Below are positions 11,140 through 58,764 of a stretch of 64,000 nt of DNA, piece by piece (the first letter of the stretch is position 1; every line of letters starts with the position of its first letter). Under the pieces are notes generated by a model. It made no database searches. It was given only the letters and a program-made list of their open reading frames with translations, and was not told the origin of the DNA. Location of the stretch: positions 7,843,599 to 7,907,598 of the forward strand of contig CAJINV010000001.1 in NCBI GenBank assembly GCA_905178155.1, written 5' to 3'. Source of the DNA: Amoebophrya sp. A120. Lineage: Eukaryota; Protista; Dinoflagellata. The position numbers and the translations under genes were made by a program.

Positions 11140-12843
11140 TGCACGTTTACTTCGCTATCAGAAGAGCTCCGCAAAAGTCAGAATCACAGAATTTAGTCGT
11201 GGGTCCTCGTCGTATGGGCAACCAAGAGTAAAAGTTGTTCTTGTTCTCAAACCATTTTTCAACTTACAAAACAGAAGTCCTCTATGGAAGTACAGTTTTT
11301 AGATGAACAAACTAGTGTAAATAGCCATCATCCCCAACCGGCTCCTTTCAGTTTGCCGCAAAACAGCTGCGCAGCTTTGCTCTCCAAGTTTGAATTCCTT
11401 TCTGCGCCGTAGGTTCCTTATTCCCCCAAAGAAACGGAACAGAAACCGTAAATACCGTGAGAAAATTTCTTTGCTCGAACACGAACTGAAGCGAGGCTAG
11501 GCAAAGCTCTCGGGTAGTTCACCCCTGAGCTCCATCCGGGCGTGGATGAAGTAGACCACGTCACACACTACGTAGCGTTTGGAACTTATTTTGATACAAC
11601 ATGGCCAAGTGAATTTCTTCCGGATTATTTTTACATCATGATCCTGTATAGCTTGAGGCTCATATTTTTGTTTCTAGAGTGATGTTCATTTTCAGCATTT
11701 TATCGGGTCCATTGTCCGTCGATAGGTATAAATCTTCGCTTGCAAACCCGGCGCACAGCTGCTTTGGCTGCCCGAGATAGTGTCGACGAGAAAGCGCACT
11801 TGAGCTTCTTGGTAAGGTACCTGTTGATTGCGTTTATTGACGCTACTGCCATTCCTGGAGGCAGAGACTTGACTTCAGCACTAAACGAAAAAGAAGCTGC
11901 GAACGCAGCAAGTGTTGTTCTGAGCTCCCTCGTCGGCTGTAGAAGAACTGGTCAAATCACATTTTATACCTCCTCCTCTGGGCCGTTTGCGTGGTCAACT
12001 TGCGTTTATGCGAGGAATTTTCGGTACAACTCCCACTTACCGCCTCAGCTCGATGGTGCTGCTTGTTCTCGTAGACACAACACACACAAACACTGTGTCG
12101 ACTAGTATCACTTGTTGTTAGACTAGAATTGAAAACGGAAGAATGCTTGTTGAATGGTCAAACTTGTTGAAATGACGGATGAATCAGATACAACGAGCAA
12201 AAATGTTTCCAGGGTTGAGCGTTGTATCCATCTACTCTACCAACAGCGGACCTTGAGTGTCCGTGATAAATAAACCAGAGTCTACTGACTTGGTGGTGCT
12301 GTACTCTCTACGAAATCGATGATCGAAAGTACTGTTACATCTGAATAAAGCGTATCTGTATTTAGAGGTAGGCTGTGAAGCTGAAACTGTAAGTAACTGA
12401 ATCCTGCGCGATAAGTAATTAATTTTTTCGCGGTAGCACTACTTGGGGAGTGATAAAGGCGAGGGCAAAGGCGGTTAGTCGTGAGAAGGGTGCGGTGTCA
12501 AAAGGGTTAAGGTTTGCTTCGTTTTGACTCATTGCGCGTAAATCGAGAGCAGAACCCGGGTGAGTATAGTCTGAAAGCAATTTTCTCATCCCAACTTGGT
12601 CGCTTGGCTGCTGTGTAGAAGGAGCAACGTAGGCTGTGAAAGTTTTTCGCCTAGAAAGTAGGTTTTTGGGTGAGAAAGTTCTAAAAATGACGGCTCACAT
12701 CATGAAAAAAAAGTTTTTATTTTGTCGTAGTCGCCAATTTTGTTGTGGTTTAAACAGCTGCAGTTGAAGTTTTTCCTGTCGTTCCGAATTTTGTTCCTTG
12801 TCTCCATTCACAACTATCACCAGTTCGTGTGCGCTTGCGCTTT

Positions 12844-15800
12844 CTACATCTCCTGCGACATGAAGAATTTCATAGCGGCGCAGGCGATCAGAACGCAGAT
12901 TATGATGTGCCACAACTTGTAACCAGCCTTGGCGGACTTCAGCTTTTTCTGCAATTCGATGGTCTCCTGTTCCAGCTGAACGACGTATCCCACTAATTCA
13001 TCGTAGTTCTTCTGCAGATCGCCACCTGCATAATATCAATCGAAGATTTTTTTTTTTTAAATACATAGGCACAAACATAAAACTGCAATGCATCTAATGA
13101 CAACTTCAGATCGGAAAGGGTGTTGATCCAGGCTCGTCATCATCATTTCATCACGGTTCCAATTCGTGTTCTGTAGGTTGCGGTCTGACCCCTTCTCCGG
13201 CTTCTCGCGTTGCGAATCCACCGGTCTCCGGACTGCTGTTCCCTCCTCCTCGCGACAATGCTACGGTTGCTCACATTGGTCAGTACGCAGCTAGTCACAC
13301 CACCGGGTTGCCTCCACCCCAGCTGAGCGTGGGAGTCGACAACCGTGGTAATGTAACGCGAAGGCTGCAGCACACTCCCATTTTCGGTGGTGATTCTGTA
13401 CCTGTTCCTCCTAGTGGCCCACTGCCCCGCCCCTCACGCCTAAAATGCTAAGCCTAAAGGTCGGGAAATCTCAATTCACGCTTGTGAGTTTAGAAGAGGC
13501 AACCTTTGGGACGTCGAAGTGCCACGACATGCATGGCTGGGCGCGGCGGAATGTTGGCTGTGCATAGGCTCTTTTTGGAAGTATTGCTGCAGGAGGAAGG
13601 CAGAGAAGGGGGCAGTTGCCGACCAAGTCGCGCCCTTGCTCTTCTACGTCTTTATTACGATATAAATACGCAAGCACGGCAACTATGCAGAAACTACCCC
13701 CAGGCAAGCCCTCTGATAAATATGCTTGGCCGCGCTTTTTGAGTAGCTGCAAGCCTTTTCCCTTCCCCCTGCAGCATGCTTCTTTGTGGCTTTTTCATTC
13801 TATATCAAAAAGTCTTTTTGGTAGTGTCGGCGTGGGTTTGGAAACAGTGTGGCTGCGTGATTCCTGAGACCTTAGAGGGGTAAGGCAAAAACCCTCTTGC
13901 ACAGTCGAGCATAGGTGTAAACTTCAACACCGCAGCAACTCAAGGAAGGGAACAGAAGCTGGGTGAAGAAATTCACACCCGAACCATAGGTCTCCTATTT
14001 TGGGTCCATTTGAAAAGCAATAACTAGCTACGTAAAGAGGCCTTCTTTAACGTTAGGAATCACGCCCTAGCGACATCATCATCTTTGCCCTTCTTTGTAT
14101 TTAATCCCAAGCTCAAACTCAAGACCGAGGAGTTCAAGAAGTATGGACCCAAGCTCAAACTTCCGAACACCTCGGTCAGGCCACTGGGGTACTGGATGTC
14201 CGCGTCCGCCGCACAGGCGGACATCGGTGATTGTCCGCAGCTGGAGCAGCTGTTCCGCACCATTTGCCGGGCCGATGGCGTTCCCAACTGTTACGCTCCC
14301 AGCTGCTGCGTGAATTTGTGCAGCAAGAATAGCAAAACTGAAAGGGGGAAGCCTGTGCCTTTTGCGTGACAGATTCGGCACAGAGAGACTCTCATCCTGT
14401 TTGTCCCTTCGGGCATTTGTCATGCGAAGCAATTTGGTCGCGTCGATTCTGATTGGAATTCTGCATGACAAATCGCGTAACGGTTGAGAACGTAACATTT
14501 GAGAACGCCATATGCTGCGCTTGGGGGTGAACGAGGAGACGGGCCGCTTCAGGGCGGAGGAGGTTCCGCGGAACGAACACCCACTGCAGGGGCTGTTCAC
14601 CGGGGGGACCTCCTTTGCCGAGTTTAGCGGCGCCGTGAATGCGAACGTGGACGAGGCCGCGGACGCCCCCGTGGAAGGCGCAGCGGAGGACCTCGACGTC
14701 GCGGATTTGTAAGGCTGGCAAAACGAAAACCACAGGGAAGGAAATAAATAAAACGAAGAAAATAATATAAAGGGGCCGGGATAGGTTGGGCGAACCATCT
14801 TCCCGGCGCAGGTGTAGATAAAACATATGCCCCACGGGGCCACCCAAGTGAAGGAGCCACCGCGCCCCGAGGTATAGAAGGGCCGGCGCGGCGCTACGTT
14901 CACTAATGAGCGCGGGCCGCCCGGCGTGTGCAGAACATCTCGCAGAGAGATAAAAAAAGGCCGAGGCCGGATCCCGAGAAAACCAGGCACCGACCTCCTC
15001 TAGCGGGAACCGCGCCGGGCGCGGAGTCCCTCTAATGGAGGCGGCGGCGATTTTGTTTTCGGCGCGCCCGCGAGCACGCGGAGCCGCGCGCCCATATCGG
15101 TACCGAATAAAAAAGCTGACCTTTCCAAGCCATAGCCAGCCCGACCAAGGGGGGGCCAAAACCGCGGGCGCGGGCGCTGCAGCCCGAACGCCCCCCGCCT
15201 TCGTGTTCGCTCCTCGCCGGACCTGCCTCGGTCGTTTTTTTATTTTCCAAAGGCGCGCCGCGCCTTGGCCCGTGGCGCCAAGCACAACCCCCGGGGAAGG
15301 GGGAGGCGCCCATCGAGAGAGCAACGAGCGAACAGCGAGCGATCCACGCACCGAGAGCCGCCCGAGCGACTTTCTTCAACGACCCAACTGGCTCCCTTAC
15401 GCCACTTCCCAAAGACCGCAGAACCACCTGCAGGGCCCGAAAGATAAACAAACAAAACAAAGGGCAGAACCCCCGGGAAAAGATTTCACACCCAAGCAAG
15501 AAAAGAAAGCCCAAGGCACTGAAAACCCGCACGGGGGCGCGCAGATGGGTGACCCGGGCGAGGCCGCCCCAGTTCCCGCATGGTTTCGGGACCTCGCGCG
15601 CCGGCCGGGGGGCTGCTCCCGGTGTGGCCTCCTATCCCACTAATTCATCATAGTTCTTCTGCAGATCGCCACCTGCATAAGAGTGGGGTAACAATGAAAT
15701 CCTTATCCGCCCCCCCGGCGGATAAGCCGGGGGGGGGCCCCCCCCCGGCTTATCCGCCGGCGGGTCGTACCGGTATAGCCGCGACAAAGTGGCCGGGCGC

Positions 15801-18800
15801 TGCCATCGCCTGAAGGACCCGGAAATGCCGACAGCATCCGGCATGTTGTGGCAAGATTTTGAAACACCACAAAGGTCGACGGCAAGCATGACGCCGCCGG
15901 CCTTTGAGGTGTTTCTTTGAAAGTTGTAGCAGGCGCAGCATTTGAAGGGTCCGCACTCACTGCCGGGATTGCTTTGGACTTAAATAAAAAAAACCGCCAG
16001 CAGATACATACTTGCCACGCAAAAGGTGCGAAAGCTTGGGCTATTCGCCACGCAAGAAGTGGCCCAGCAAATAGCAGCGGGCACACAAGGCCAGGGCCAG
16101 AACTTGCCCCACAGAAGTAAACCCCCAGCGTGAGGGCCACCGAGCTTCTTCGCATACACCCTTCGGGTTATGCGCTTACTTGCCAGGCCATGCCGCCCTG
16201 CTCTGTCTTGGGCATCCATGCCTGCAGACAGCGGCTTAGGGTCCGAAGCGAGAACGAAACGCAACGGGCTGAGGGTTTCATCTTGCGCGCGCCCGCCTTC
16301 TAGGGGTGTGCGCCTGTGCAAACCCAAGCCCGCCGCCCGCCATGGGCCCCCCGCCCTGCTTTTTCAATGGGCCCAGCCTGCCACGCACCGAAACAGGCCG
16401 CGACAACGCCCACAGCTGCGCGCCGAGGGCTCGCCTCTTATAAATGTCGGGCGCCATCGGTGGTAAAATCCCCCCCCATGGTGTGCTCGACTTATATTCT
16501 ACCGAGATAGGAGGGGGCTCTAGGTTGGGCAGCCATTTCCTGGGCCGCGGGCCGGGCCGTGCTGGTGACATGTTAGCTTGCCGCAGCGCGGTTCAATAGC
16601 TTCCGCCACGGCCTGCCATAGATATTTCAGCAATTGAGCCGCGCGGGCGACAGCCTCGCGCGCTCTACTTTTGTTCGCCGGCTTTTTTTTTTTTCATACC
16701 GCCGCCGGCCAATGTGCTCTAGGTTTCCGGCGCGGCGCAAATGCTCGCCCGAAGTCAGTGACGCGCAACAGGCCTCGGGGCCCACTGAGGTTTTCTCGGT
16801 TGCCATTACAGGTTTTCCCGCTTCCCATCTCGGGCCCCGGTGGGGTTTTCCCGCCGCACAGGCCCCGGGGCCGGCCCAGTGCGGCGGGCTGTGACCCTGG
16901 GCAAGCCGCAGCCCGCTACCAGCTATTACCCCCGTGCTGGCTCACTCGCGACGCCCCGGCCGCCTCACCACGCGGCACGCATGGCGCCAGGGCTCCGGGG
17001 CAGCAGCTCCGGGGACTTGCATGGGGCTGCGGGCTGAGTGATGATTTCTTGCGTGGCCTGTTTTCAGCGCGAATTGGTAGCCGTCGGGGCTTGTGAGTAG
17101 CCTGCAAAGCCAGCGGGGTGCTTGCACCTGCGAACAACCCCAAGACAGCCTGCACGCGTGAAGCCTGGTGGCGCCCTTGTTTGCGAGGCACGCTGCCGGA
17201 CTCGGTCTGTGAGAGAGTGTGTCTCTTCTGTCTGTAATGTGATGAGGCCCGGGCTTCTATTGACAAACCCCCTAAACAGGCCCCGACGTGCGAAGCTATC
17301 TAGTTTCTGTGTGAGAATTTTCAACGCCATGTCTTTCCGCCTTGTGTTGTTTTGCTTGGTTGCATCCATGGCAAACATTGACGCACTAATTCATCATAGT
17401 TCTTCTGCAGATCGCCACCTGCATAATGTAATTAGAAGCGAAAACCGTCCATACCCAACAATTTTCACGAGCACCAACAAAAACCCCGACCACCTCCTCC
17501 CCCAACCGGGCCACCTCCTCCCACGCCCAACGCCTTCTCCGTCCAAACCATGACCACCTCCTCCGGTCACCGGGCCTCCTCCTCTGGAACCCGGAGCTTC
17601 TCCTCCTCCGGAGGTTGGAAGGACCTCCTCCTCCGGAGGCCCGCCCTCCTCCCCCGGACCTCAGACCACCTCCTCCGGGGGTTGGACCTCCTCCTCCTCC
17701 GGAGGCCCGTCCTCCTCCCCCGGACGTCAGACCACCTCCTCCGGGGGTTGGACCTCCTCCTCCTCCGGAGGCCGGGCCTCCTCCTCCGCACCTCAGACCA
17801 CCTCCTCCGGGGGTTGGGCCTCCTCCTCCTCCGGAGGCCGGACCTCCTCCTCCTCCGGGGGTTGGACCTCCTCCTCCGCCGGAGGCCGGACCTCCTCCTC
17901 CGGACCTCAGACCACCTCCTTCGGGGGTTGGGGCTCCTCCTCCTCCGTACGTGGCGGCCGCTTTCTTATTCGGAAACGAAAAGACTGGCGCCGGGATGTT
18001 CTTACTCACTCGGGACCGAGGGGAGACCAAGCGGCCGGGTCGCCTTTATTAGGGCGGCACTGCACTGCGGCAGCAGTCTGCGCAACTGTGGCGAAAACGG
18101 TGCGGCGGGGTGCGCCGAAAGCGGCGCGCTGGAGTCGCTGCCAAAGTCGGCGGCTCGGCCGCTTGCGCCTCCAAGGCTTGCCGGACGTCTACGGATCGCG
18201 GACGCCGTAGCCATTGGCGACCTTCCGCTTTTAAAATTGCAAAAAGATGGCAGCCGGGGCACCTCCATTCCCCCTTGTAACGTTGGAAAAAGAGGGGAGC
18301 CGGCCCACCTTCATTCCCCCTTTTAACATTGGAGAAAGAGGGCAGCCGGGGCACCTCCATTCCCCCTTTTAACATTGGAAAAAGATGGCAGCCGGATCGA
18401 TCACCTCCATTCCCCCTCTGAACATTGGAAAAAGATGGCAGCCGGCTCACCTCCATTCCCCCTTTTAACATTGGAAAAAGGTGGTAGACGGGTCACCTCC
18501 CTCCTATCCCACTAATTCATCATAGTTCTTCTGCAGATCGCCACCTGCATGATATCAATCGAAGATTCCGCATTATTTCTTACGGTGCTGATAGGTAAGT
18601 AAAAACAGGACAAAAAGAAAAACCAAAGTCATTGAGTGCACACTGAACCTAATCTGCAAGTGCGAATCTGCAAGAACTGAAGGTTTTCGACGTATGTGCT
18701 GATTCTACTATACCCTTCTTTACGCCCCCTGCAGCTGGCTGCTTCTCCACAACAGTGAGTCGTGCTTCCTTAATCTCGCCCCTCTGCAGCTTTTCCCAGT

Positions 18801-19249
18801 CCGATTTCCCCAAATTTGTCGTTCTGTCCGACCCAACCGCTGTCGCCTGTGATGTCATACATGAGTTTGCGTCTTAGTAAAATTTGACGTAAATTTAACT
18901 TTTGTCACTTACGAAGCCACGACCACATATACAAGATCTTCGCTGACGATCTGCGCACTCCAAAATGAATCTCCATTACCTGCACGAGAAACCGGTGTGT
19001 GGAGAAATCTGGTGGCGCGCTGCTGGCCTGCAAGCAGATCTGCACAGCAGCGGTGTCGCCCGGCATCAACAGCGCTGAACTCGGGCGCACGAGGTACGCC
19101 TTCGGTGCGGTGGTCTTCACTTTCCAGGCTACTGGGTTGGAATTGACATTTTTCAATTCCAGCGTCTGCTCCTCGCCTGCAGTGCTGCCCCCGACAAACT
19201 CCAGCTGCGACTTGGGCGCGAGCGCCAGCAAATCGCTAAAGTCGGCCAT
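12844..19249 (-). CDS. VAP: VAMP-associated protein (MSP domain, coiled coil, C-terminal TM anchor); exons 19249-18980, 18846-18714, 13025-12844; interrupted by a 5.5-kb insertion
   Basis: The MSP motif VAWKVKTTAPKAYLVRPS..HRFLVQ is present. The last exon encodes GDLQKNYDELVGYVVQLEQETIELQKKLK..LWHIIICVLIACAAMKFFM*. Donor 18713 (GT) is phase-compatible with the TGCAG acceptor at 13026. Confidence 0.88.
15715..15760. repeat. Perfect 46-bp palindrome with a G9C9 centre
   Basis: ccggcggataagcc-G9-C9-ggcttatccgccgg is its own reverse complement. Confidence 0.95.
17550..17950. repeat. CCT-rich minisatellite with a higher-order period of ~66 bp
   Basis: gggggttgg recurs at about 17677, 17743, 17809, 17857 and 17923 among cctcctccgg subunits. 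Confidence 0.9.
18228..18500. repeat. Tandem repeat, ~46-bp unit, ~6 copies, at the end of insert segment C
   Basis: The unit ttggaaaaagatggcagccggNNcacctccattcccccttttaaca starts at about 18237, 18283, 18329, 18375, 18425 and 18471. Confidence 0.92.
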
Positions 19250-20473
19250 ACTCTTTTGCTACAAAAAGGAGGAACAAGAAAACGGGACTACAGACGGCTT
19301 AACCTATGGACTTTTTCAACGAAGTGGAAGCAGTAAGTAACTCCCTGTCGAAGTTGTAAGGAACCTTCTCGCGCTGGAATGAAACTACTTGTACTTTATT
19401 TGTAGTCGCTGATATCTTATTTCTTTACTCTTACACAGTAGACCTCCGCCTGGGATCTTCCAAGAAGAAAGCTCTATCTGTGAGCAGAATGGAGGGCAGC
19501 AAAAGTACGAAAATTCTCCTGTATTTGCCCAAAATGGTATATGAAGTACAATGGGGTGCTGTGACAATATGATATCCTGCTGCCGCACTGGGCACTGAAC
19601 TGGAGCAGTTGTGAATGAGAATGAAAATGGCACAGAAAATCCAACACGTCTCTGGTCAGAAAACTAGCTCTGCAAAATGTTTGGGTCAGTCTCGAAGAAA
19701 ATTGTGCACTCCTTGCACAGTGGTAAATCATGTGCTTCTTCTTCAAACGCCTCAGCTTCACGGGATCGCATAACTCGTCAGAATCTCATCAAATTACCGA
19801 ATTTTATCAAAACCTCAATGGCTAAAGTGACAAATCAAGAACATACTACATCGACTGTAGCAAATGCGCCGCAACTCTCAGTAGGGAAATATCTCTGACA
19901 ATAGATCAGTCTTCGGGCGCACCCACAATCCTTCTTGTGTTCTTCAGATCTGTGTTTCATAACTGTCACAGTCAGCGTGCCGGCACTGTAATTTTCTGTT
20001 CTTCTAAACTTGGTAGTGGTACATCATTGCATGCGATTAATTACTGCTTTGCCAGTAGAGCACTCCTAGCACCTATTCGAAACCCAGTTGCCATGCTACC
20101 GGCAAGCGCAAGCTTGGCTACCGCCGCACCTTTCCGGCGCGCACAACTGTTTCACACATCGCTGCCGAATGTTCCCGTCTCCGGCCTCCGATTTCCAACT
20201 CCGCCTTTGCCCCATTTTTCCGTAGTAGCGACGTGTCCTGGTTATCACAAAACACCACCAAAGGTGTGAGTCGCCCGTCGTGCATCCACAACCTTCCGCG
20301 TTATTGTACCAAACACTTTCGCGAGCGTTGCGGCCTTGCGCCTCGATCATCCTCGGGTACTACTTACCAAAGCCTTTCCCAGGCTCATCTTTCGCGGGGA
20401 CGGCGCTCCTGGTTGTTCACACCGGGCAAAATCGGAAGATGCAGATTTTTGCATCTCGCCTGCACTCTCTCCG

Positions 20474-34259: not shown

Positions 34260-35081
34260 GTTTTTTATGGGGAGGATTACTTAATAGATTTAAAATCTGA
34301 ACCAAACGTCTCTCGCTCGTCTGTTGACGGACTCATGTTCTGATTTTTTTTCCCATACGGTAAGTTAGAATGCCTGGGCCCGATCGCCATTTTTATGGTC
34401 TCACATCTATCCTCTTGCCTATCTGCCGCCAGCTTGGGTGTGTCGCCTGTCTTTGTGAAAACCAAACAAACGAAAATTCCGGCCAGTATGAACCACGTTC
34501 AGAAAACTCGTGGGATCTTCAATTTGAAGATTTACCAAAAAGAACTGGATGCTGTTGACAGGGAACGTTTATTCCAACAACACTTCCAACCTCTGCCTCA
34601 TGCTTCTACTTGTTCTGCACGATTATGTTATCATCCGTGATCATTAGATGTGAAAGAGAGATTCTGAAGATTTCAGTTTGCGCTTTGAGATTTTCTGATT
34701 ACATTTACAATTTTAACAACAGCAAGCCAACATCAAACACGCACGTCTGTGAGACGAACGACCCACTCTTCTCACCCGCCTTGCTCCCTTTCCTGCTCCA
34801 TGACAAAACGGTGGAGGTTATCCTGACCAAAAACGTCCCCACACCGGAGTCAAGATCTGCTAGACAAATCAACAAGCTCTGGCACTTTCACATGACAAGT
34901 TCTTTGCCCTCATAGTGTAATCCTGTTTGGGTAATTCAGCAGCATCACAGATCTAGCACATCATGCTGAGTCCAGCATCACAAACTCCAAAACACGACTA
35001 CAAAAAGACTCTCATGGGGCTCTGCATGAGAAACATTTTAAGCATGCAGATTTGCATGACAAAGCTGGGGTGGGGACGTTT

Positions 35082-38000
35082 TTACTCAGCATAGAAGTCC
35101 TCTTTTTCGAACCGGTTCACCTGCCAGTCCAGCCCCCGCCATGGCTGCAGGTGCAGCAGTTTCGCGTCGAGCGACTCCCCGTCGCCGTCCTTCTGCGCGG
35201 GACACGTCTTGTTGTAGTTCCCCACGCCCACGGTAATGCACTCCCCGTCGGATCCGCCGCAGGTGCAGAATTCCTGGTGCAGGTAGGGCACGGTGGCGAG
35301 GGACACCTGCTCGTCGTCCAGAAACGTGCCCATGGCGAACGTGCGGAAGGGGTTGTTGCCCCACCGGTACAGGTAAAAGCCCCCCGTGGCGTCCATGTAG
35401 CGGAAGAACTTCTGGTACTCACCTTCCGGGTCGCGAAACCACGGCAGGTACAGGATCTCGATGTCGCTCATGAAGGTCTGCTGGTACCACTTCCAGTTCT
35501 TTTCCACCAACGACGCGAGGATCTTCGTCCGCCGCGGGTTGAGGTTGTGCATTTTGCAATACAGCAAGTAGTAGTACAGAAAGTTCACCGCGACGCTCGC
35601 CGCCTCCCGCCCCAGGTGCGGGAAGGCCGCCACCTTGTTGGTCCGCTTCAGCATCGCGAACGGGTCTTCGCGCCAGGGACCGGGGAAGTAACTATCGGTA
35701 TCCAGCGTCATGCCGTAGTCGAACCGCTGCAGCACCGGCTCCAGGAACACCGGGCCGGACCGCCACCGGCACATGTGCCGGTAGCCGAGCGCGAACGGCA
35801 TCTGGTGAATGGGGATCTGGTCCCGCCAAATCTCGGGTACGGCATCCAGAGACGCGAAGTTCCGCCCAAGGCTGGCGAACCTGGAGAAGGGATGGGGGGA
35901 AAGGAGATTTCATCGAGAAAATGTGTGTGTATGGGTGCGCCCGACCGATTGCAACAGAAAAGAAGTAAGTATGTCCACCAGAGATCATTGTTATTCACCT
36001 CGAAAACAAAGGTTCTTTTTGTCAAATAGTACACAGCATCTTCTACATCAAGTCAAGATTAAGATTTTACCAAACACGATTCTCGCTGCAGAGAACGATT
36101 CTACGCCGGGACGCTTCGGACATCCCCTCGTGGAAAATCACGACCGGGTAGTCGTAGTGCTTATTTAGGTTCTCCCAGATGCTCGGCAAGGCCCGCTCGA
36201 TGTCGAGCAAGTCGCGCGGCGAGTCCGGCATGACGAAGTGCAACACCGCACTCAATTTTTCCGTTTCATTAATCCTGGCCCGATTCGGCTCCTCCATGTC
36301 GCACATGGTGCCGCGATACGGCGGAAAGCACTCGCACTCCCCGTCGAAGCAGCGCCCCCGCTGGTCCTTCTCAATGAACCACTTCAGCAAGGGCTGCTCG
36401 TGCAGCACGCGCGCCGCGAAGCTTTGCAGCAGCGTCATCTGTCGGACCTCCACGTCGCGCAGGAGCGCGGCGTCCTCAAAGTCGTTCAGAATTGCTTGGT
36501 GCGCCGCAGTTCCGGTAACCGTGTCGATAAATTGCTCCGGCTGCCGCTTCACCTGGTAGTGCTGCTCATCCGGCGCGGTGGGCAAACCGACCGTTACCGT
36601 GTCGGGCAGTTGCTGCTGACTCTTCGCGCTGCTACTCTGCTCAACATGATCTCCGCCTGGAAAATAAACACTACCCGTCGTATTCCGGTTTTTACACATG
36701 TCCGGGAGATTATGCGCGTGCACGGGGATCTTTTCCACTTGGAACTGGCGGTACAAGTTGCACACTGCGTCCTCCCGCTCCTCCTGCTTTTCCGCCTGAC
36801 ACGCGGTTACTGGGCTCAGGTCTACCTTCATGGAGAATTCCAGCTGGGCAGCCACGCGCGCATTCGGTGAGCAGTACCAGCCCTTGGCCCATTTCTGGTA
36901 CAGCAGACTCGGACGCAAGCCCACCAGGCACCGGTCCGCCGGGTGCGCCTCCTCCTCCACGAGCGAGGGTGGGTTAATTTCGAACACCTCGAGCTTCCTC
37001 TGCGTGACGGGGATGACGGTTGCCTTCGCGAGACCACCCGCCGCGCCACCTGATGTCGTCGTGGCCCCCGCGTAGTTGTCTATTGGGTTCTTTTGCCCCT
37101 TCCGGTCGGCCGCGTGCTTTCGGTTTTCTCTACTTTTTTCCTCTCGCTTCACGGAATCCCGCTCCGCGGAGGCAATCCACGGGTCGTGCCCGAACGCCTT
37201 CTTCCACACGTACACGGCGAATACGTGCTCCACGTGGTCCAGCACGTAGCCGTGTTTGCGCATCACTTGCGTTTCCGCGTACTGCAGCGAGCACTGGAGC
37301 TTCCACACCGAGGCCGGCACGTCTTGGTAGAAGGGTAGCCGATGGCCGTGGTCGACCAGCTCCCAGTACTGGCGCATGTTGGGCGCCATCTCCAGGTATC
37401 AACTGCAAATATGTCTGGGTCTGGAAGAGTCGCGGTTTTTCATGCACATTTTGCATGACCCGTGAGGTCTGTGATGCAGGTCCTAGCAGCACAGATTTTT
37501 GGAGGGCTTCTTAATGCTTATCACGCATGATAAATGCCCTATCCGCGTGCCAAGCACTGAACTCCTCTTGCTTCTCATGCAACACTGATATTTTTAGAAT
37601 CCGCCGACAGCATTACAAGTTCCACCCTTCCAGACCCAGACATATTTGCACTACATACCAGTGGCGGGGGCACCGTGGGGTTGATCGCGACAAACACAAT
37701 CTTCGGCTTCACCGGCCCGGATTCCAGCAGTTTCTTCAGCAGCAGGCAGTTGCCCACCAGCGGGTGCACGAACAGCAGGTCGGGCGAGTAGTGGTTCACG
37801 CTCTTGTACAGGCTGATCATGCTGCTCCACTGCGCCAGCCGGCTCATCGTGTTCGTCGTGTGGATGTTGTTCTTCACCAACCGCGCCCCGGGCCCGAGCG
37901 GCCGGCCGCGGTAGCTCACCGACACGTTGTAGGGGTCGGCGGTAGACGCCTGAAAATGGTAGTGCGCCCACCCGGCTTCCGATGGCAGGCAGTCGGCGGC

Positions 38001-40305
38001 GTCAAAGTCCAAAAGCGTCCCGCGGCACGCGCCCGGCGGGTAGTGCGGGCTGTCCAGACTGTAGCTGATGACGAAGTACTATGAGAGTGCACAACTCGTC
38101 CCCCTTGCCCTCATGTGAAGGGAATAAGCAGCAACACAGGGAGAGGGCGGAAGAAAACGAAATCTGGCTCCCGCTCGATAAATCTGCACGCGGATTGTAG
38201 AACTGTCTCAGATTGGTACGCGGACAATGCTTAAAGACAGACACACAATGTGGATTTGGTCGTACTTATTTTGCACTACAAATGAGGGAGAGGGGGGGTT
38301 GTGCACTCTCATAAGTACGACAGCGACACTTCGCGGTCCACCATACGCAAGAGCTGCAGCGGACTCCGCTCGGCCCGTGGCGCGCCGACCGCGTCCGTGC
38401 TCACGGCGGTCTTTTGGCTGCGAGTCTGCTTCGCAAGCTTCTGGAACTCAGACAAGTACGTAATTTGAGACTTCGTCATGTGGTCCGCCGCCTCCGGCGG
38501 CAGCAGCGCCTGCTCTAGTTTTCGCCAGTGCTGCTCGAACTTCTGCGCGCTGCGACTTAGCGCAGTTGTGCTCTTGTCACTTCGCGGGTCCTGCTCGCCG
38601 CCCGCTGCGGATACCACAATATCCTCCTGAAGATGTGTATCCACGTAGTCTTCGATGTCGTACTCCTGAAACGCCCCAAACCCGCGCCCCCCGGTGCTCC
38701 GCATGAACAGGCAGATGCGCTCGAATTGGTTGCCGCTCGCCAGGAACTCACGCTTCGGGTTGTCCAGCGCCGTGAAGAATTCCCAGCTGAAGATCGCGTT
38801 CAGCTGGTTCTGCGACGTGTCTTTGTTTGCTAACGAGATGAAATTCGTGTCGTCGTTTGACACGTACAACCCGGTCGTGCTGCCCCCGAGGTCCATACTG
38901 AGCACGTTCCGGATCTTCGCCGGATCCAGACTCGCAACCAGCCCCGCGGATGTTGTTGATGAAACCAACGGCAAATACCCTATCGGCGCCACGCGGAACA
39001 CGCTCGCGAACGAGGGAAAGAACAGCTTGAAGGCCGGGTGCTCGTGCCGGGGGATCAGTTCCTTCGGCAAGTGGTTGGGGACGCTGTAGTGCTCCGCGAT
39101 GTCCCCGAGAATGGGCTCGAGGAAGTGCAGCACGTTCACGACGAGCTCGCGGTGGACGGACAGCACCTGCTTCAGCTGATCCTGGTATCCCTTGTTCCCA
39201 ACGGCGCGGGCCACGGACTGGGCTAGGGGGTCCAGGCTCGCGGTGAGGTCGTGCAGCCGCCGACTGGCCGTCTCCACCCCGTGCTCCATCTCCAGCAGAT
39301 AACGGATCTGCTGCTCGAACAGCGTGGCGTGAAACGATATCCTCGTGTCCACGTACAACGGGGAAAGCCGGACGGGGCAGAGCATCTATGCACTGCGAAC
39401 ATCGATCTGGGTCTGGAAGGTTGCGATTTCTGATGCGCCGTCCCGCAGATCATGCAAAAAGAAAAATTTGTCTTGCGCGAATACTAGCACATTATGCCCA
39501 TTTCTGGCAATGCTGCAACGGTGTTTCTCATGCGGCATATCTATGCAACATTGCGAAGCCCTTATATGATCAAAACCCGTGATGCTAGGCACTGCATTCC
39601 AGCCCCCGTGGGGCTGGCATCCAACATCTGCATGGCACACTCCTGCACTCAACATCCAGATCCAGACATATTTGCAGTGGATAGCACCTGCATCAACCCC
39701 ATGTAGGCCGACTCGAACAACCGCAACGCCGCGGTGATTAACTGGGAGGCCTGCGTGGTGGAGACCAGCTCCACGACTTCGAAATGCCGCAAGCCCACGT
39801 AGGTTCGGTGGAACTCGTTGGTGTACGCCAACGCAGCTTCATGCTGCTTCTGCAGCTGCACGGCGGCGGGCTCGAAACACAACAGATCCTCGCTCTGCCG
39901 CCGCTCGGCAACCAGCTTTTGCTCCTTCTTCAAACTTGCTGTATCCGCTTCGGTTGCCAAACGCTTTGCGTAGTTATGGTTTGTCCCGATCTGCTGTTGC
40001 GCAGCGACAACGGGAAGAAATGATCTGGTGTGCAGTACTTCTAAAGGTAAATCGTAATAGTGATCTTCCAGGTTGTAGAAGTCAATCAGCGAAGCGATCA
40101 TTTCCCGACACAGAGGCCACTGCAGTACGGTGGCGAACGCCGCTGCGACCAGCAGAGCCCCGAGCGCCGTCCAGTGATTGGCGCGGAAGACACTGTAGCT
40201 GTCTTTTCTTCTTCTTCGTGTTGTCTTTCTGTGCTCGGAAGCCGCCACCCTGCCTGATATTCGAAATCTTTCCATCGCGAAAGACTGAGTCTTTGCATTC
40301 AGCAT
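35082..40305 (-). CDS. Large type-II membrane protein: methyltransferase-like middle domain, EGF-like module and C-terminal GT15 (KRE2/MNT1) alpha-1,2-mannosyltransferase; exons approx. 40305-39688, 39385-38319, 38079-37659, 37392-36071, 35880-35082
   Basis: GT15 motifs DYPVVIFHE, GYRHMCRW.SG, LDTDS and GGFYLYRWG are present, plus the EGF module CFDGECECFPPYRGTMC and an N-terminal TM. Removing three TIR elements and one GT-AG intron gives one continuous frame. Confidence 0.8.
37396..37658. mobile_element. Introner-like MITE (family 1), 263 bp, ~32-bp TIR, 3-bp TSD (cag)
   Basis: Left end GTATCAACTGCAAATATGTCTGGGTCTGGAAG versus right-end reverse complement GTATGTAGTGCAAATATGTCTGGGTCTGGAAG. 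cag lies at 37393-95 and 37659-61. Confidence 0.9.
38080..38313. mobile_element. Introner-like MITE (family 2), 234 bp, 16-bp perfect TIR, 5-bp TSD (agtac)
   Basis: TATGAGAGTGCACAAC is inverted at both ends. agtac lies at 38075-79 and 38314-18. Removal restores VSLSYFVISY. Confidence 0.9.
39386..39684. mobile_element. Introner-like MITE (family 1), 299 bp, imperfect TIR, degenerate 3-bp TSD (cat/cac)
   Basis: Left end CTATGCACTGCGAACATCGATCTGGGTCTGG versus right-end reverse complement CTATCCACTGCAAATATGTCTGGATCTGG. The TIR core is the same as in the 37396 element. Confidence 0.85.
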
Positions 40306-52042: not shown

Positions 52043-54709
52043 CCTCGGTTGCTCCGTGCGACGAGGGGGTTGACAAAGCAGGTCAAAGAAGTTTTATCCG
52101 CGCCGAGACGTCGTGTGTTTCGTACTTAAAATATTAAATATTGTGCCACAATTCTAATGCTTCTGGAGTTTTCAAAATTCAGAATTCGTAAAAGTCGTTG
52201 TAAACCACAGGTAAGCTCAAATGTTGTGTAAAAGTGTATGTGTCTTTTGTGTTGTTAAAACTTTTTGTAGTAGTTACTGAAAAGAATCCTCCAACACAAG
52301 TACTGAGTGAGACACTTGTGCCGTCGGAAATATACCGATCAGTGGTGTGTAAGTAAAAATTTTTGTTCGCCAAGAAGAGAAGCGCACGAGAGGAGGTACA
52401 GCTTCTGGCAGGTTGACGCTGTTCGGTATTAAGCGCGTAAATATATAATCGTACAAAGTTCTGTAAAGGTGGTTCAAGCGAATCAGTATCAGTTACGTCC
52501 AACTGTCTTTTCAGAAACAGTGTACATCAAAGAACCCAGGGTAGAGTAATAAATGCGGCAGTAATTCAGATGCTGAGAGAGTACCGCCGTTCTTTACTAA
52601 GCCCGGTTGTAAACGGTAGTTAGTTGATCGATGTTGTCAGAGAGTAATACAGGCGAAAAATAGCACTTACAGTACAAAAGAATCACAGCGGCGATGATGG
52701 AAGTGAAGCTCGATAGAAGATTCTGCTTTCTACATTAGCTGCAGCTGGAGAAAAGCGAATGACAAGAGGAGTTCTCAACAACTGCAATATTTGCATGGCA
52801 ATGACAAAAAGAACTACTCCATGTAGTGCGAATCTACTGAGCGATCAATCTATGCGACTTTTTTCGTACTGGGAAGGTCTATAATCGGAGGACGCGTAGG
52901 TGCGAAGATGCTTCGACAGCAAGTGCGGTTCGCTTCGTCCTGGCTGTTACAGCGGAGGTGTGTAGTAGAGAAAGATAGTCTTTTACAATTTGGAGTACTA
53001 ACGGTATCAGATAATTAATCGAGTTCGGCGGGAAAGCCTCTTTTCCTCGACTCTTCAAGACACTTGGCCTGTTGACAATGCAAAAGTAAAGTTTTTCGTT
53101 TGTGTGTTTCGGTTATCTTCGCGTGAGCAGTCAGGCTTTATATCAGTAATGTGAAGCCGAGAACGGATAAAAAAGTAAAATTTTGTGGATCGCAGAAAAT
53201 TCAAAATGCTTCTCAAAGTTTGTCGGGATACTCTTGTGTGTTAGATCAGGAGGAGCGCAAGGAGTATTGAGCTGCAGATTTTTTGGATCACAAATGTCCG
53301 TCGCTGCTCGCTTTGGGATCAAGGCTTATCACTTTCGCGTTAAGCACCTGTGTGCAAAAATTTTCGCAGTCAACCGAAAAACATTTGCAATTAGCCGCTC
53401 GTTCGCATGGCTTAACAAAGACCGAAGCTGCCAGCGTATCACGCCTTCGTCAACAACACAGTGCACCACAGCACTACATAATATACCGATAATACAGTGA
53501 AGACCGATACATACCACTGTCGTAGTAGAGTGCTAAGTGTCGGATCCCTCCTTTGTCACGTAGCGCCACGAAAGGCAAAAAAAAACATACGACCGAAGAC
53601 CACTTTTGTATAATGCAACAAACCGACGACCAGTGATTCTCTCTCTGCAGAAAACGTCGGAGGATGAGCACATAGATGAAGGGCCGAAAAGGCTTGGAGC
53701 TCAAGTACCACTATCTGGCGCGTCATCAAGAAGTCCTTCTGCACCGAGAGCGCCGGATGATGTTGATAAAAATACGGGTTTGGAGTGTGTGTAAAAGTCG
53801 TGAAGGCATGCCACCGAAGGCTGCAGGGGCACGCCCTGTGCGAGGCAGAAAGTTGCAAAACGAAATTTACGCTCTAAAGATGCAAGCTCTCTTGTTGTTG
53901 TGTGTTCTTTTGAGGTTCTGAGGAAACCGGTTACCAAGATAGGGAAAAAAATGGGTATGAAAAGCATACTTGCGGGGGTTCGCTGCGTAGGCCGGCGACA
54001 GACCCGCTCCGAGCGCACCGGCCAATGCCTGAGGGCAGTACGCCGCCCGGACGTATCCGCAGCGATGCGATCACGTCCGACCTTCTGGGCTACAGCCCGA
54101 GGCCAGGCGCACAAAAGGGTCCGCTTCGCGAAGCATTTTGTCGCGTTGCAAAGACGCGATGTGCAGTGCGTTGTCCGGAAAAGTACAAAGAGGACACGCG
54201 CGGAACGACGTTCCACCAGCCAGCGTCGCTTTCCGGGCCGTGGTTTCAATATTGTCGTAAGCGGTGAAAGTTGACACCGTTGATCTTCCCGAAGTGACCG
54301 CCCAAAAGCGGACGCAAAATCATCACTCGCCACGTGTAAAAGCCCCGCCGCTCCGCATCGGGCCGACATCCACCACCGGGCGGGCGCCGCATTCCTTCGG
54401 CGGCGCGGCCGGTAATGGCAGCTCGCCCCCCCCTTCCCCTCTCGCCCAGGCCGTTTCCGCGGCCGCCCCGAGCGCCGAGGGCGCTATGACCTCCCGAAAC
54501 GAGCAACAAGGGGCGGAACACCATTAGAAGGGCGCCCTAGGGCGCGGCGAGTAGTGCCACCTCGGCCCTCCTTCCGCTCTCGCACGGACCGCTTCTGCGG
54601 GCACGGGTCGCTCCGCGGGCTTTATCACCTTACAAAGCGAGCTCTAAGGAGGCGGAACCCCCTGCGGAGGGCACTCAATGCTGGATCGCAGCTCCAGACT
54701 TCGGAGGTG

Positions 54710-54747
54710 AGCCATCACCTTAGTCAGGGGTGACTAAGGTGATGGCT
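54710..54747. other. Perfect hairpin (17-bp stem, GGGG loop) followed by a T-run
   Basis: agccatcaccttagtca-gggg-tgactaaggtgatggct, with a T-run at 54758-54766. Confidence 0.9.
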
Positions 54748-54889
54748 AAGCTCCGGATTTTTTTTTCTGTACGAAGAAGGTAGAGACAACAGACCACAAT
54801 AATGGGATTTAAGTTGCCCAGATAAGTCCAATGCTTCTTATAATATACAAGATACTTCATGATGAACGTTATTTATTATATTTTTGTAG

Positions 54890-55565
54890 TTGCCCACACA
54901 GCTTTCATTTTTTTTTCAAAATTTTGAAGATTTTAAAAAAGCCAAGAATTGAGACGACTAAGGCAATTGGATCTTGCAGATACATGAAAAGCAGATATTG
55001 TGCACATTTTGGGTTTATTGTTTGTGTCCTACATCACTTCCAAAGTGACTCGCTCCATTTTTGCAATTTTTGAGATTTTTTGAATTTTTTGGAAATGTCA
55101 AAAATGGTAGTGAAAGAAATGCACTTCGAGAGGATTAATGGCGTTCACATAGTCAAATCTCTGAAATGCACTGACTGTTGCTCTGTTTGGTCATATACAA
55201 AAGCACCTTGCAGAGCTCCACAATTTTTTAATTTTTTTGACTTTTTCTGATTATAGAAAAAATAATACACAAAACGCATATTGTGATACACAATAATGAA
55301 ACTTTGAGCGTTGCAATGCTCTGGCCTTGTTTAGACCACCTCTTTTGCTGCTAAATCACATAACTTTGCGGGTCCAAAATTTTTCGGATTTTTTTGAATT
55401 TTAAAAAATCATGAAAAATACTTATAATATTTCTACTTGGTGAAATGTAGGCAAAGAAGTCACAGAATATCACTGAGAATTGGAGATAAATTCAATATAT
55501 GAGAAATATTGTATTTGGTTTCTGGGTTTCTATTTTTTCTGAAAATTTTGCAATTTCTGGAAATG
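54890..55565. repeat. AT-rich degenerate repeat with T-tract clusters every ~155-160 bp
   Basis: Clusters such as ttttttcaaaattttgaagattttaaaaaa start near 54905, 55058, 55220, 55376 and 55530. Confidence 0.6.
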
Positions 55566-55917
55566 CTGTAAAAACTACTTGAAAAGAGGTTGCTTGACTC
55601 TTTAAGATGAGAAGACTGCACACAAAAACTACGATTTACCCCTACCGTCCTGGCTTGCCCTCGGTCGCCATGCCGGACAGCCCTGTCTTCACAAACGGCA
55701 AGAATGCACCTCATGCCCTTAATAAGAGACAAGCTAGAGCCTCAGTGCTGGGATACAATCGCCAGCCCTAACCCATGGCAAGTGGGCGGAAAAGCATAGG
55801 GAGCGCCCCCTATGCTGGCTGTTTACCGCACCTGATTGCCCGTGTGCCGTACGCGAGCAATTTGCCCGTCGGGGATCGCCAGCAATGCGCCCGATTTCCC
55901 AAGGGTGTGCCGAATGC

Positions 55918-55932
55918 GGGGGGGGGGGGGGG

Positions 55933-55964
<32 letters not shown>
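55918..55964. repeat. G19C28 homopolymer fold-back
   Basis: A G run at 55918-55936 directly abuts a C run at 55937-55964. Confidence 0.9.
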
Positions 55965-56525
55965 AGAAGCAATATGGGAAGAAGGACCGCGCCCCGCGGC
56001 GGAATTTCCGAGGCGGGCCAAGGCCGGCGCGCGCCTCCGATGCAAGTCGCCGGACCGCCGCCCGCCTCCGCAGCATTGGGCGGCAAAACTGCGCGACTAC
56101 CGTTCCGGCTTGCCGTTCCGAGGGAGCAGGCGCGCCGCCAGTCGAAGCTCCGCTTGCACATTACCCCAACAACAACGGCAGGAGGCCCCATTCTTGGTCG
56201 AGGTAGCCTTTGGTGTTCCGACATGATTTCGAATGTGAGCGCGCTCAGCGACCGGGATTCTTTTATTAAAGCTACTTCTTCCCGCAAAAATAGCGACTCG
56301 AGTCGCGAGCGCGCATCGCTCCCGGCACTGGAAGACTCGCTTCTGCTCGTCGATGGCTGCCCGCGTGGCAGAGCGGCCCCGGAAACACCTTGAGGCGCGC
56401 GCGGAGTTGCTGCTGTCATAGCTTTACAAAATTGGCGCCTGGCGTTCCTACAGTCCGGGCTTGTAAGCGCGATCACTTCGCGAACTCCGCCCCCCGGCCG
56501 CGGGAGGCCGTCTCGTCGCGCCGCC

Positions 56526-58181
56526 ATGCGCACCGGCGACCTGGCGTCGACGTTGTGGCCGGCGACGCCCGCCGCCTGCGAAAACGGGACCCGGCGTAGC
56601 ACAAAGGCTGGCCCCCGGACAACTTCGTGGCTAGCGAAGGTCCACCGAGCGCCGCTCTCGGACCGCGCACCCGACACCGAGCCGCCTGTCGCCCCGCGAC
56701 TCACAAGTCCGGGGTTTACCTCGTTTGCTGCGTTTGAGGCTCTTGTCAAGGCGGACCTCGTGCGTCTGGGAACGTACTTCTCGCCGCCGAAGGATCCAGG
56801 ACTGGCGGCTGTGGCGCCCTGCGCAGCTCAACTGGTGGAGCACGCCGGTCCGTCACCCGTATTCGAGCTTGCCCGCCGTGTTGCCTACCTGGAACTGCTC
56901 CTCCTGCGTCTCGGGCAAGTGTTCGAGCGGAAGAGACCGGTCGCACGACCAGAAACTCAGAGCAGCACGAAGTCCAGAATTCAATGGGTCAACGCAGCGA
57001 TCGGCGCTACTCCGCGACGTGAGCCACCGAGTCGGTCCGCGCTCACCGTCGCAGCCACCATAAATCCGAAAAGCGCCAGTTATGCGAATGCCGCCGTCCA
57101 AACCCTGGGCATCGCGGACCAACCGGGAGCCGCCTCGCGCACTCCCACCAGCCGAGACGAAAAAACGCCGAAAACGTTCGCGCGCGGTGTGCAAGCGAAT
57201 GTTCTTCCCACGCGGGACGCAAGCGTAAACACCAATCCAGTTGTGTTCGGGGACGAAAGCAAAGCGCCACGGCCTGTTTTGTCCGTACGACCGATTTTTG
57301 CATCGTCTTTCGCAACCACAGGTGTACAAACGGAACCGCCAGTCGCCAAAGTTTCCGTGGCCGTTCAAAGCCGACCCGAAATGTCCACCGCCGAGGCACA
57401 AACTTCCATCGCTCTTGCCGACATCGAGGCGTGTTTTCCGTTCACAATTGACGATAGTGTAAGCAGCAGCCCGCGCAGCAGCGCGGAGAAACAAGACGAC
57501 CCGCCGATGAAAAGTCTCGACGGTGCGACCCCCGCGCCAGGAACCAACGACCCTGGCGGTCGAACTTCGGTCGCAGTGGATGGCGTGCGAGTTCGCGCCG
57601 ACAGTCCATTTTCTTGGTTGCGTTTGTTTCCCTCTAAAGCAGAGAGAAAGAAGCAAAGCACAGCGGGCGCAGAGCAGAAGAACAACACGAAAGCGACCAC
57701 ATCAACATCAGAAGCCAAAACTTCAGTGCCTGTTGTTCCCGCCGCGCCACCCTCGCCGGGCAAGCGAAGACGCGACGCCGCGGTCGAGCAAGAGCAGAAG
57801 ATAGCGAAGTTGAAGCGCGCTCTGCAGCTCGAGAAGGATTTGGCACAGGGCGTGTGCGCGGAGAATAGCAAGTTGGAGGACGAAACCCGGAAGTGGAAGG
57901 CAAAGTACGAGGAGGAAGCAACACTGAGGAAAAAACTCGAGGGGACCGCGGCCGACTTGCAGAAGGAGGTGAAACGCATGCAAAATGCGCACTTTCGCCA
58001 CCACAGCTGGTCGGTACCGGTGAAGAACAGGCTTGCGGGAAGCACGCGCGAGATCGGCGTTGGGACGGTGCGCGGACCAGAATTTCTTCCCGTAACCGTT
58101 GCGGTGCAAACGGTCACGGAAATGTCGCCCCGCGGGCCGCTGATGAATTCCGGAATGTTTGCCTTCGCAAATAGGTCGTGA
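56526..58181 (+). CDS. Intronless 551-aa protein with repeated VQT/AQT-type motifs and a coiled coil; possibly element-borne
   Basis: Long ORF containing NAAVQT, RGVQAN, DASVNT, TTGVQT, SVAVQS, AEAQT, EIGVGT and TVAVQT, plus a heptad-rich KIAKLKRALQLEK...EVKRMQ segment. Confidence 0.6.
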   Translation: MRTGDLASTLWPATPAACENGTRRSTKAGPRTTSWLAKVHRAPLSDRAPDTEPPVAPRLTSPGFTSFAAFEALVKADLVRLGTYFSPPKDPGLAAVAPCAAQLVEHAGPSPVFELARRVAYLELLLLRLGQVFERKRPVARPETQSSTKSRIQWVNAAIGATPRREPPSRSALTVAATINPKSASYANAAVQTLGIADQPGAASRTPTSRDEKTPKTFARGVQANVLPTRDASVNTNPVVFGDESKAPRPVLSVRPIFASSFATTGVQTEPPVAKVSVAVQSRPEMSTAEAQTSIALADIEACFPFTIDDSVSSSPRSSAEKQDDPPMKSLDGATPAPGTNDPGGRTSVAVDGVRVRADSPFSWLRLFPSKAERKKQSTAGAEQKNNTKATTSTSEAKTSVPVVPAAPPSPGKRRRDAAVEQEQKIAKLKRALQLEKDLAQGVCAENSKLEDETRKWKAKYEEEATLRKKLEGTAADLQKEVKRMQNAHFRHHSWSVPVKNRLAGSTREIGVGTVRGPEFLPVTVAVQTVTEMSPRGPLMNSGMFAFANRS

Positions 58182-58764
58182 GGCAAGCTTTTTTAGTTCT
58201 TCGTGCAATCGATATAGTTGCGGGGACTCTAGATGAAAACACAGTAAACACGTTTCTTCATATACATACGAAAGGAAAAAGGATAGCAAGCAAGAGGAAG
58301 TAGCATGTGACAAAGTGAGATCATGTTGAAGTAGCGATATCCATCATCAAGTTTTCAGTCTAGTTTTGCGAGGCCCGGTGGTGGATGGGATAGCAGTTTT
58401 GTTGGTTACTTGTATTCTGTGCTCTGTTCGTGCGTTGCCCGGTGACAAAGCGCACCGGAGGGAACCCGGTGACAAAGTGCGCCGGAGTGTCGTGGTGGGT
58501 GAGGTGAAGATGGATAGACCGAGGCTCCCCTGTAAACTCACAATTCAATGGAAATTCATTCTTGGGAGCATCACAGTGTAGAGTTCACGCGGAGCGATCA
58601 CCTGCACCCGAGAGAGAGAGAGAGAAGGTTCTACTGCGTGTTCTGTCGCGGTGTTGTCATCACCGTGTAGTTGCTACTCATTTTCTCGATCCAGCGGACC
58701 CGAGGAGTATTAGTTGGCTGTAGCGACAGGAGCATATAACTGTGGCGAACAAAGCAAATCAAAA

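Follow-up and report, generated by a model that had tools for sequence, protein, structure and literature searches.

Three nested insertions flanked by 41-63-bp repeats at one splice acceptor of VAP in Amoebophrya sp. A120

Analysis of a 64,000-nucleotide stretch of the genome of the dinoflagellate Amoebophrya sp. A120 (contig CAJINV010000001.1, positions 7,843,599 to 7,907,598; hereafter the window, with coordinates counted from its first letter) revealed that the junction between intron 2 and exon 3 of VAP, a membrane-protein gene of essential type, is present in four copies, which separate three inserts named A, B and C. A previous, sequence-only reading of the window had proposed this arrangement; repeat comparison confirmed it, together with the lack of relationship among the three inserts, between which only short chance matches are found. 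The main biological point was left out of that reading: in RNA-like contigs from two samples the entire block is spliced out as a single 5,688-nt GT-AG intron, using the farthest of the four acceptors.

The four copies are oriented on the minus strand. Copy c1 (12986..13048) is 63 bp long, with 23 nt of intron and 40 nt of exon, and contains the acceptor in use; c2 (15633..15678) covers 46 bp, or 48 with an ambiguous TT; c3 (17384..17424) covers 41 bp, or 43-44 with an ambiguous TT or ATT; c4 (18505..18567), again of 63 bp, occupies the original acceptor position. Identity is exact over 43 bp between c2 and c3, over 41 bp between c3 and c4, and over 51 bp (15628-15678) between c2 and c4, the last stretch including a CCTCC that corresponds, on the minus strand, to GGAGG, the first five bases of A; c1 and c4 are identical at 61 of 63 positions and differ at 13003/18522 and 13032/18551. 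When the window was simulated 60 times with an order-3 Markov model, the longest exact repeat stayed below 20 bp every time, compared with at least 41 bp observed, and no other exact direct repeat of at least 17 bp at a spacing of 80-15,000 bp was found in the window outside the tandem zone. The possibility that c3 is an older copy of 60 bp was considered and discarded, since four mismatches cluster in 14 nt and the following 41 nt have none. The target itself has a predicted hairpin that is not significant (z=-1.37); both differences between c4 and c1 are located in its arms, and pairing is better in c4.

Stepwise in-silico removal of B, C and A, each with one copy of the repeat, restores a clean intron of 169 nt; thus, the insertion order A, C, B, already deduced in the previous reading, stands. 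For A and B the repeats are target-site duplications and not element parts, since relatives of both inserts are found elsewhere with flanks unlike VAP (evidence from other loci and depth values, here and below, derive from public short-read contigs of four of the 12 listed runs). The repeat is absent from these other loci, which also rules out, for A and B, a recombinase acting on an att core; likewise, the idea that the repeat is an internal part of the element at unrelated loci does not hold for these two inserts. The duplications are real and measure between 41 and 63 bp; the exact values of 63, 49 and 43 bp assigned earlier are now replaced by ranges, 61-63 bp for A, 46-54 bp for C and 41-43 bp for B. 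Other copies of B include the two A's at 15679-15680, so that the duplication produced by B may be of 41 bp and that by C of 46 bp; in that case B and C join the target at one base, without need for a later change in c4. The former values of 43 bp for B and 49 bp for C may still apply if those bases represent microhomology. The first nick of A is placed 15-17 bp away from the nick of B and C, and the GGAGG that opens C, equal to the first five bases of A and also aligned with the 46-bp repeat unit of C itself, may consist of duplicated target DNA plus microhomology; the single junction shared by A and C that had been claimed is therefore not established.

VAP is read from the minus strand. Exon 1 (coding, 18980..19249) includes the MSP domain (Pfam PF00635, E=8.7e-18) and displays 100% identity to the A120 protein P0001, a 194-aa record that probably comes from the same assembly and is not an independent support. 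Exon 2 (18714..18846) is defined by splice joints in contigs from runs X3 and X6 and by a translation equal to P0001; intron 2 (13026..18713, GT..AG) contains A, B and C; exon 3 (12844..13025), defined by RNA-like contigs and translation, encodes a coiled coil and a transmembrane tail, followed by the stop codon. The joint 13023-18712 is present in both of the RNA-like runs with coverage (X3 and X6), whose contigs also splice two small GT-AG introns. Three intact AG sites, in c4, c3 and c2, are nearer to the donor and are bypassed across 5.7 kb in these contigs, and the spliced product is the full 194-aa VAP, identical to P0001. Intron 2 has thus grown from 169 nt before the insertions to 5,688 nt. 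Use of the proximal acceptors would lead to products computed as 147 aa for c4, 166 aa for c3 and 147 aa for c2; indeed, the first G of A (15632) and the first G of C (18504) complete an in-frame TAG directly after the duplicated piece of exon, so that translation would stop at once with c2 or c4. The contig of the VAP transcript measures 2,050 nt (window 11586-19605), continues for about 1.2 kb beyond the stop codon and shows an extra GT-AG intron near 11820-11969. Relatives of VAP in metagenomes, found at 14 loci with 32-47% identity, are uninformative for the empty allele.

The block was confirmed as real DNA, and its origin by misassembly is unlikely. In the DNA-like run X1 the left single-copy flank is covered to 13033 and the right one from 18521, with 0 differences and depths of 40.9 and 43.3, respectively, so that each flank has its own c1 or c4 variants; the core of C is found at a depth of 46.2. 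A contig from another sample (X3) matches 17024-17413 with 0 differences and reaches across the boundary between B and c3; 30 of its letters fall within c3, one below the bridging threshold. The A120 genome was built from both Illumina and Nanopore reads (PMC7789003). Thus, misassembly or merging of alleles would be a very improbable explanation, even considering that no read or contig spans the full block among the short-read contigs examined and that X1 is possibly the source data of the assembly.

Insert A (13049..15632, minus strand, 2,584 bp) carries, as previously noted, a poly(A) of 10 nt at its minus-strand 3' end. This is a family terminus: in two X6 contigs the similarity extends across the T-tract up to 13047, where unrelated sequence begins. 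The 3' module of A (about 13049-14052) has many relatives, with summed contig depths of 292-724 in three bins over 13005-13907, while the 5' part is at about twice single-copy depth (89 over 14811-15412, with 41 in the flank). Contigs from X1, X3 and X6 diverge from A at 13138-13142 or at 13412, indicating that other families share only its 3' tail, namely the last 90 or 360 nt; loose contig ends are also found at 14052, and an X1 contig with a depth of 89 stops exactly at the 5' end of A, 15632. The combination of a poly(A) at the family terminus, a target duplication (61/63 bp) and an excess of 3' copies with a shared tail is that of non-LTR (long terminal repeat) retroposons, suggesting that A belongs to such a poly(A) family.

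A second element, similar to miniature inverted-repeat transposable elements (MITEs), is located within A (14275..14511, 237 bp, with no strand assigned); it has imperfect terminal inverted repeats of about 42 bp, AT at both ends and very many relatives, with a summed depth of about 390 times the flank, and it probably belongs to one of the A120 introner families. The element splits a plus-strand frame (14028-14712), which rejoins in frame once the element is taken away, and an X3 contig keeps it unspliced. This plus-strand frame, the only plausible one in A, has no usable match in the atlas, and its portion after the MITE-like element has none at E<=0.01 among 115 candidates; of three matches to cluster representatives, two were leucine-rich-repeat proteins of plants and the third an unnamed, repetitive protein, and all were discarded as repeat noise. 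Exact scans with the tail of A produced 0 matches in metagenome contigs and 0 in viral contigs, and the folds at the 3' ends of A and C are not significant.

Insert B (15679..17383, minus strand, 1,705 bp) belongs to a multi-copy family, with both ends common to other copies: the 15679 end is followed by unrelated flanks in three contigs (agreement 0.61), and the other end recurs in two. Neither poly(A) nor terminal inverted or direct repeats are found in B, the longest end-to-end inverted match being 6 bp; the fold at its 5' end is unremarkable (z=0.68). A long G/C hairpin (15708..15767) lies about 30 nt from the minus-strand 3' end, with z=-5.8 as DNA and 0 of 200 shuffles as stable. B thus has the 3' subterminal hairpin of Helitron2 elements and lacks their terminal repeats. 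An exact scan of viral contigs with the end of B gave 0 matches. A G18C28 run at 55918-55964 of the window resembles the apex of this hairpin.

Insert C (17425..18504, minus strand, 1,080 bp) has a core at single-copy depth and contains two tandem arrays, one of 21/24-bp repeats at 17557-17947 and the other, at 18228-18500, of a 46-bp unit present in 5.8 copies; this unit is abundant elsewhere in the genome. The last 14 nt of C are identical at 10 of 14 positions to the stretch of host intron that immediately precedes the junction (nominal p 0.0003-0.002, for a window picked after the fact). On the plus strand, the eleven bases at 18205-18215 resemble the start of the dinoflagellate spliced leader, and this may be due to chance.

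No mobility enzyme is encoded by the inserts. The 24 read-through frames taken from A (after removal of the MITE-like element), B and C contain 0 mobility domains and gave two sub-threshold Pfam matches only, and no reverse transcriptase (RT) plus restriction-like endonuclease (RLE) domain is present, in agreement with their initial description as non-autonomous cargo. Strict sequence specificity, also proposed in the previous reading, was not borne out: the ends of three other B copies and of two members of the A family adjoin flanks unlike VAP, with an identity to the VAP site of 6/30 and 8/30, respectively, that is at chance level, as counted by eye on the consensus of these five contigs for one junction side. 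In this small, one-sided sample, the conserved target typical of site-specific RLE elements is thus not seen. The target is not a multicopy RNA gene or a repeat, having no Rfam match or tRNA and flanks at single-copy depth; Rfam returned four weak matches, three of which on the hairpin of B, all far below gathering scores. With no guide, Rfam or tRNA match, the suggested RNA guidance finds no support, and the same applies to a programmable cargo array: the repeats have unequal lengths of 63, 46-48, 41-44 and 63 bp, differently from a CRISPR-like array, and neither guide nor enzyme occurs locally. The bases preceding the 5' duplication are CATT for B, TATC for C and GCGG for A, none of the TTTT type. 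The short direct terminal repeats of Replitrons are lacking at the termini of all three inserts, as are terminal inverted repeats with a 2-6-bp duplication; the MITE-like element inside A alone fits the class of terminal-inverted-repeat elements and introners.

The size of the A120 genome is 115 Mb; on this basis, the number of sites hit three times by random insertion is expected to be 9e-5 with 1,000 long-duplication insertions and 0.09 with 10,000. Thus, three hits at one site are unlikely to arise by chance, in support of the site reuse put forward in the previous reading. Our analysis favours, with moderate confidence, successive integration in trans of A, then C, then B, with a stagger of 41-63 bp, by target-primed reverse transcription in the case of A, at a loose nicking hot spot where insertions are tolerated. 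A trans-acting transposon enzyme would nick the two strands 41-63 bp apart. The poly(A) end of A, its 3'-enriched relatives and the tail shared with other families suggest that target-primed reverse transcription by a non-LTR retrotransposon is the most likely route for this insert; autonomous non-LTR retrotransposons are reported in the A120 genome (PMC7789003). B and C would have followed the same or a related route, and a HUH/Helitron-type one is possible for B, while the site would be a nicking hot spot with only a loose preference for sequence. Each duplication copies the whole acceptor plus 35-45 nt of exon, always leaving an intact acceptor and exon at the far end, so that inserts are likely tolerated and can pile up. 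Selection accounts for the survival of the inserts at the site and not for their aim. The preference for the distal acceptor could depend on terminal-exon definition or on decay of the other products.

Several observations weigh against this reconstruction. No autonomous partner was found in the inserts or in the scans of metagenome and viral contigs, and no terminal motif is common to A, B and C, which weakens the idea of one machinery. Neither poly(A) nor a simple repeat is present at the 3' ends of B and C, both of which finish with TT on the minus strand; moreover, the ends of B recur in other copies, a pattern that suits a DNA-type element and a full-length RNA equally well. In X1 the core of C (depth 46 at 17932-18243) shows no relative at >=85%, and no donor was seen. 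B integrated at the exact junction base of C despite the changed upstream context, which is poorly explained by a loose preference. In addition, long duplications were measured at the VAP locus only; the depths are summed contig depths, a rough measure that does not translate into copy numbers; the RNA status of X3 and X6, two samples of one study, is guessed; and assembled contigs lose rare isoforms, so that minor proximal splicing may occur.

The features of B leave room for a division of labour, in which B, and perhaps C, would be non-autonomous HUH/Helitron2-like elements with long, variable duplications and A a retroposon, different machineries having acted on one fragile site. The strong subterminal hairpin, the absence of poly(A) and the ends common among copies are consistent with this explanation, as is the fact that the Chlamydomonas CRe-1/2/3 duplications are sometimes of 44-443 bp (PMC3627910); we regard it as rather unlikely, considering that B has no asymmetric terminal inverted repeat of at least 8 bp and no terminal direct repeat, that the tetramers CATT, TATC and GCGG are not of the TTTT type, and that no RepHel or Fanzor partner was seen. 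The previous reading had invoked a sequence-specific, possibly RNA-guided integrase, able to regenerate its site at each event and to load heterogeneous cargo, thus building a repeat-cargo array. The three hits within about 20 bp, with their low expectation by chance (9e-5 to 0.09), the junction base common to B and C and the lack of a second long-duplication site in the window would agree with such an enzyme, as would the post hoc 10/14 match between the end of C and the host intron; conversely, the flanks next to the other ends of A and B are unrelated (in only two and three contigs, respectively, and on one side), the repeat copies are unequal in length at both ends, the termini are not shared, no RNA family or tRNA is matched and no enzyme is found in the inserts, so we consider this possibility unlikely. 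The same low probability is given to its extended form, where an integrase acting in trans (an RLE-type RT, or Fanzor/HUH) would recognise the splice junction, or the junction of an earlier insertion, cut with a stagger of 41-63 bp and load unrelated cargo, including single-copy sequence such as C; the resulting arrays would be silent, as a functional 3' splice site is formed anew at each insertion.

Repair could also generate nested duplications, if a break or a stalled fork were healed by template switching with re-copying of the target, B and C possibly deriving from one event. B and C leave the target at one base with different re-entry points, several junctions show 2-5 nt of microhomology, and the core of C is not a dispersed family; on the other hand, B is copied over its entire length, its termini being common to other copies, A ends with poly(A) at a family terminus, and no donor of C is seen in X1, which makes templated insertion a distinctly unlikely origin of the block.

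Other features of the window deserve a brief description. The region 53700-58300, which may be further mobile DNA, is a patchwork of GC-rich and AT-rich segments with a 25-bp hairpin (54702-54755) and no long flanking repeat; a 595-aa open reading frame (56394-58181) in it gives a weak coiled-coil match, its matches in the atlas being all under 0.9. Related inverted repeats of about 30-36 bp surround segments of 200-280 bp at 37395-37659 and 39406-39686, an arrangement typical of introners, and a further inverted-repeat pair is found at 34819-35093.

Every ingredient of the VAP block has a precedent, and the nested triple use of one acceptor in a protein gene with an intact mRNA was not found in the literature searched. 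This search, which did not cover subscription papers and figure-only supplements, found neither long-duplication elements in Amoebophrya nor nested inserts that regenerate a splice acceptor. The locus illustrates a simple route to harmless insertions that overlap an exon, as the whole acceptor is duplicated and splicing takes the far copy. Moreover, it offers a clean natural test of acceptor choice in an organism whose U1 small nuclear RNA was not found (PMC7789003), and it suggests that A120 has a mobile system with long duplications, distinct from its described introners. If a target rule exists, the locus would reveal an integrase directed to the splice junction of a protein-coding gene; otherwise, it represents a striking hot spot for known mechanisms.

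Comparison with known systems starts from the length of the duplications. The statement in the previous reading that typical target-site duplications are below 20 bp overlooks R9 of Adineta vaga, with a duplication of 126 bp, and Dualen, where it exceeds 50 bp (Dualen-4b_cRei, median 900 bp) (PMC9977147), as well as Chlamydomonas Helitron2. As in R9 and Dualen, at VAP a long duplication flanks a non-LTR-like insert, A having poly(A) and 3'-enriched relatives; unlike them, three unrelated, non-autonomous inserts are found at the junction of a single-copy protein gene, and no RT was identified. Repeated use of one site is a property of CRE, R2, R4, NeSL and Utopia elements, and CRE and R4 are described as duplicating their targets (PMC3636483), while target specificity is reported as weakened in some Utopia families (PMC4640811). 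However, these elements target multicopy RNA genes or repeats, whereas the VAP site has no Rfam match and the other copies of its inserts lie at unlike flanks.

The Chlamydomonas Helitron2 elements CRe-1/2/3 produce duplications of 7-19 bp, sometimes of 44, 50, 93, 242 and 443 bp (PMC3627910), and Replitron-1 produces variable ones (PMC10288648). The VAP inserts are likewise non-autonomous, with variable duplications, which in those elements sometimes reach 44-93 bp, and B has a subterminal hairpin; they differ in that the TTTT target is lacking, and neither asymmetric inverted repeats nor terminal direct repeats are present. The introners of Amoebophrya have inverted repeats and direct repeats of 3-5 nt (PMC7789003), and the duplications of A120 introner families are of 2-6 bp among 40 of 58 family rows (PMC12130899). 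The organism is the same and splicing neutralises the insertions in both cases; at VAP, conversely, no new intron is formed and an old GT-AG intron becomes longer. Finally, three sites of the human NF1 gene were each hit twice by L1/Alu insertions (PMC3219598), and the short interspersed element responsible for merle is inserted at an intron/exon boundary, at the acceptor, with a 15-bp duplication (PMC7349775). Thus, reuse of the same nucleotide in an ordinary gene is known from NF1, and insertion at an acceptor with a duplication from merle; however, in the former the insertions are on separate alleles and in the latter a single insert with a short duplication disturbs splicing, whereas in VAP a nested stack coexists with a normal mRNA.

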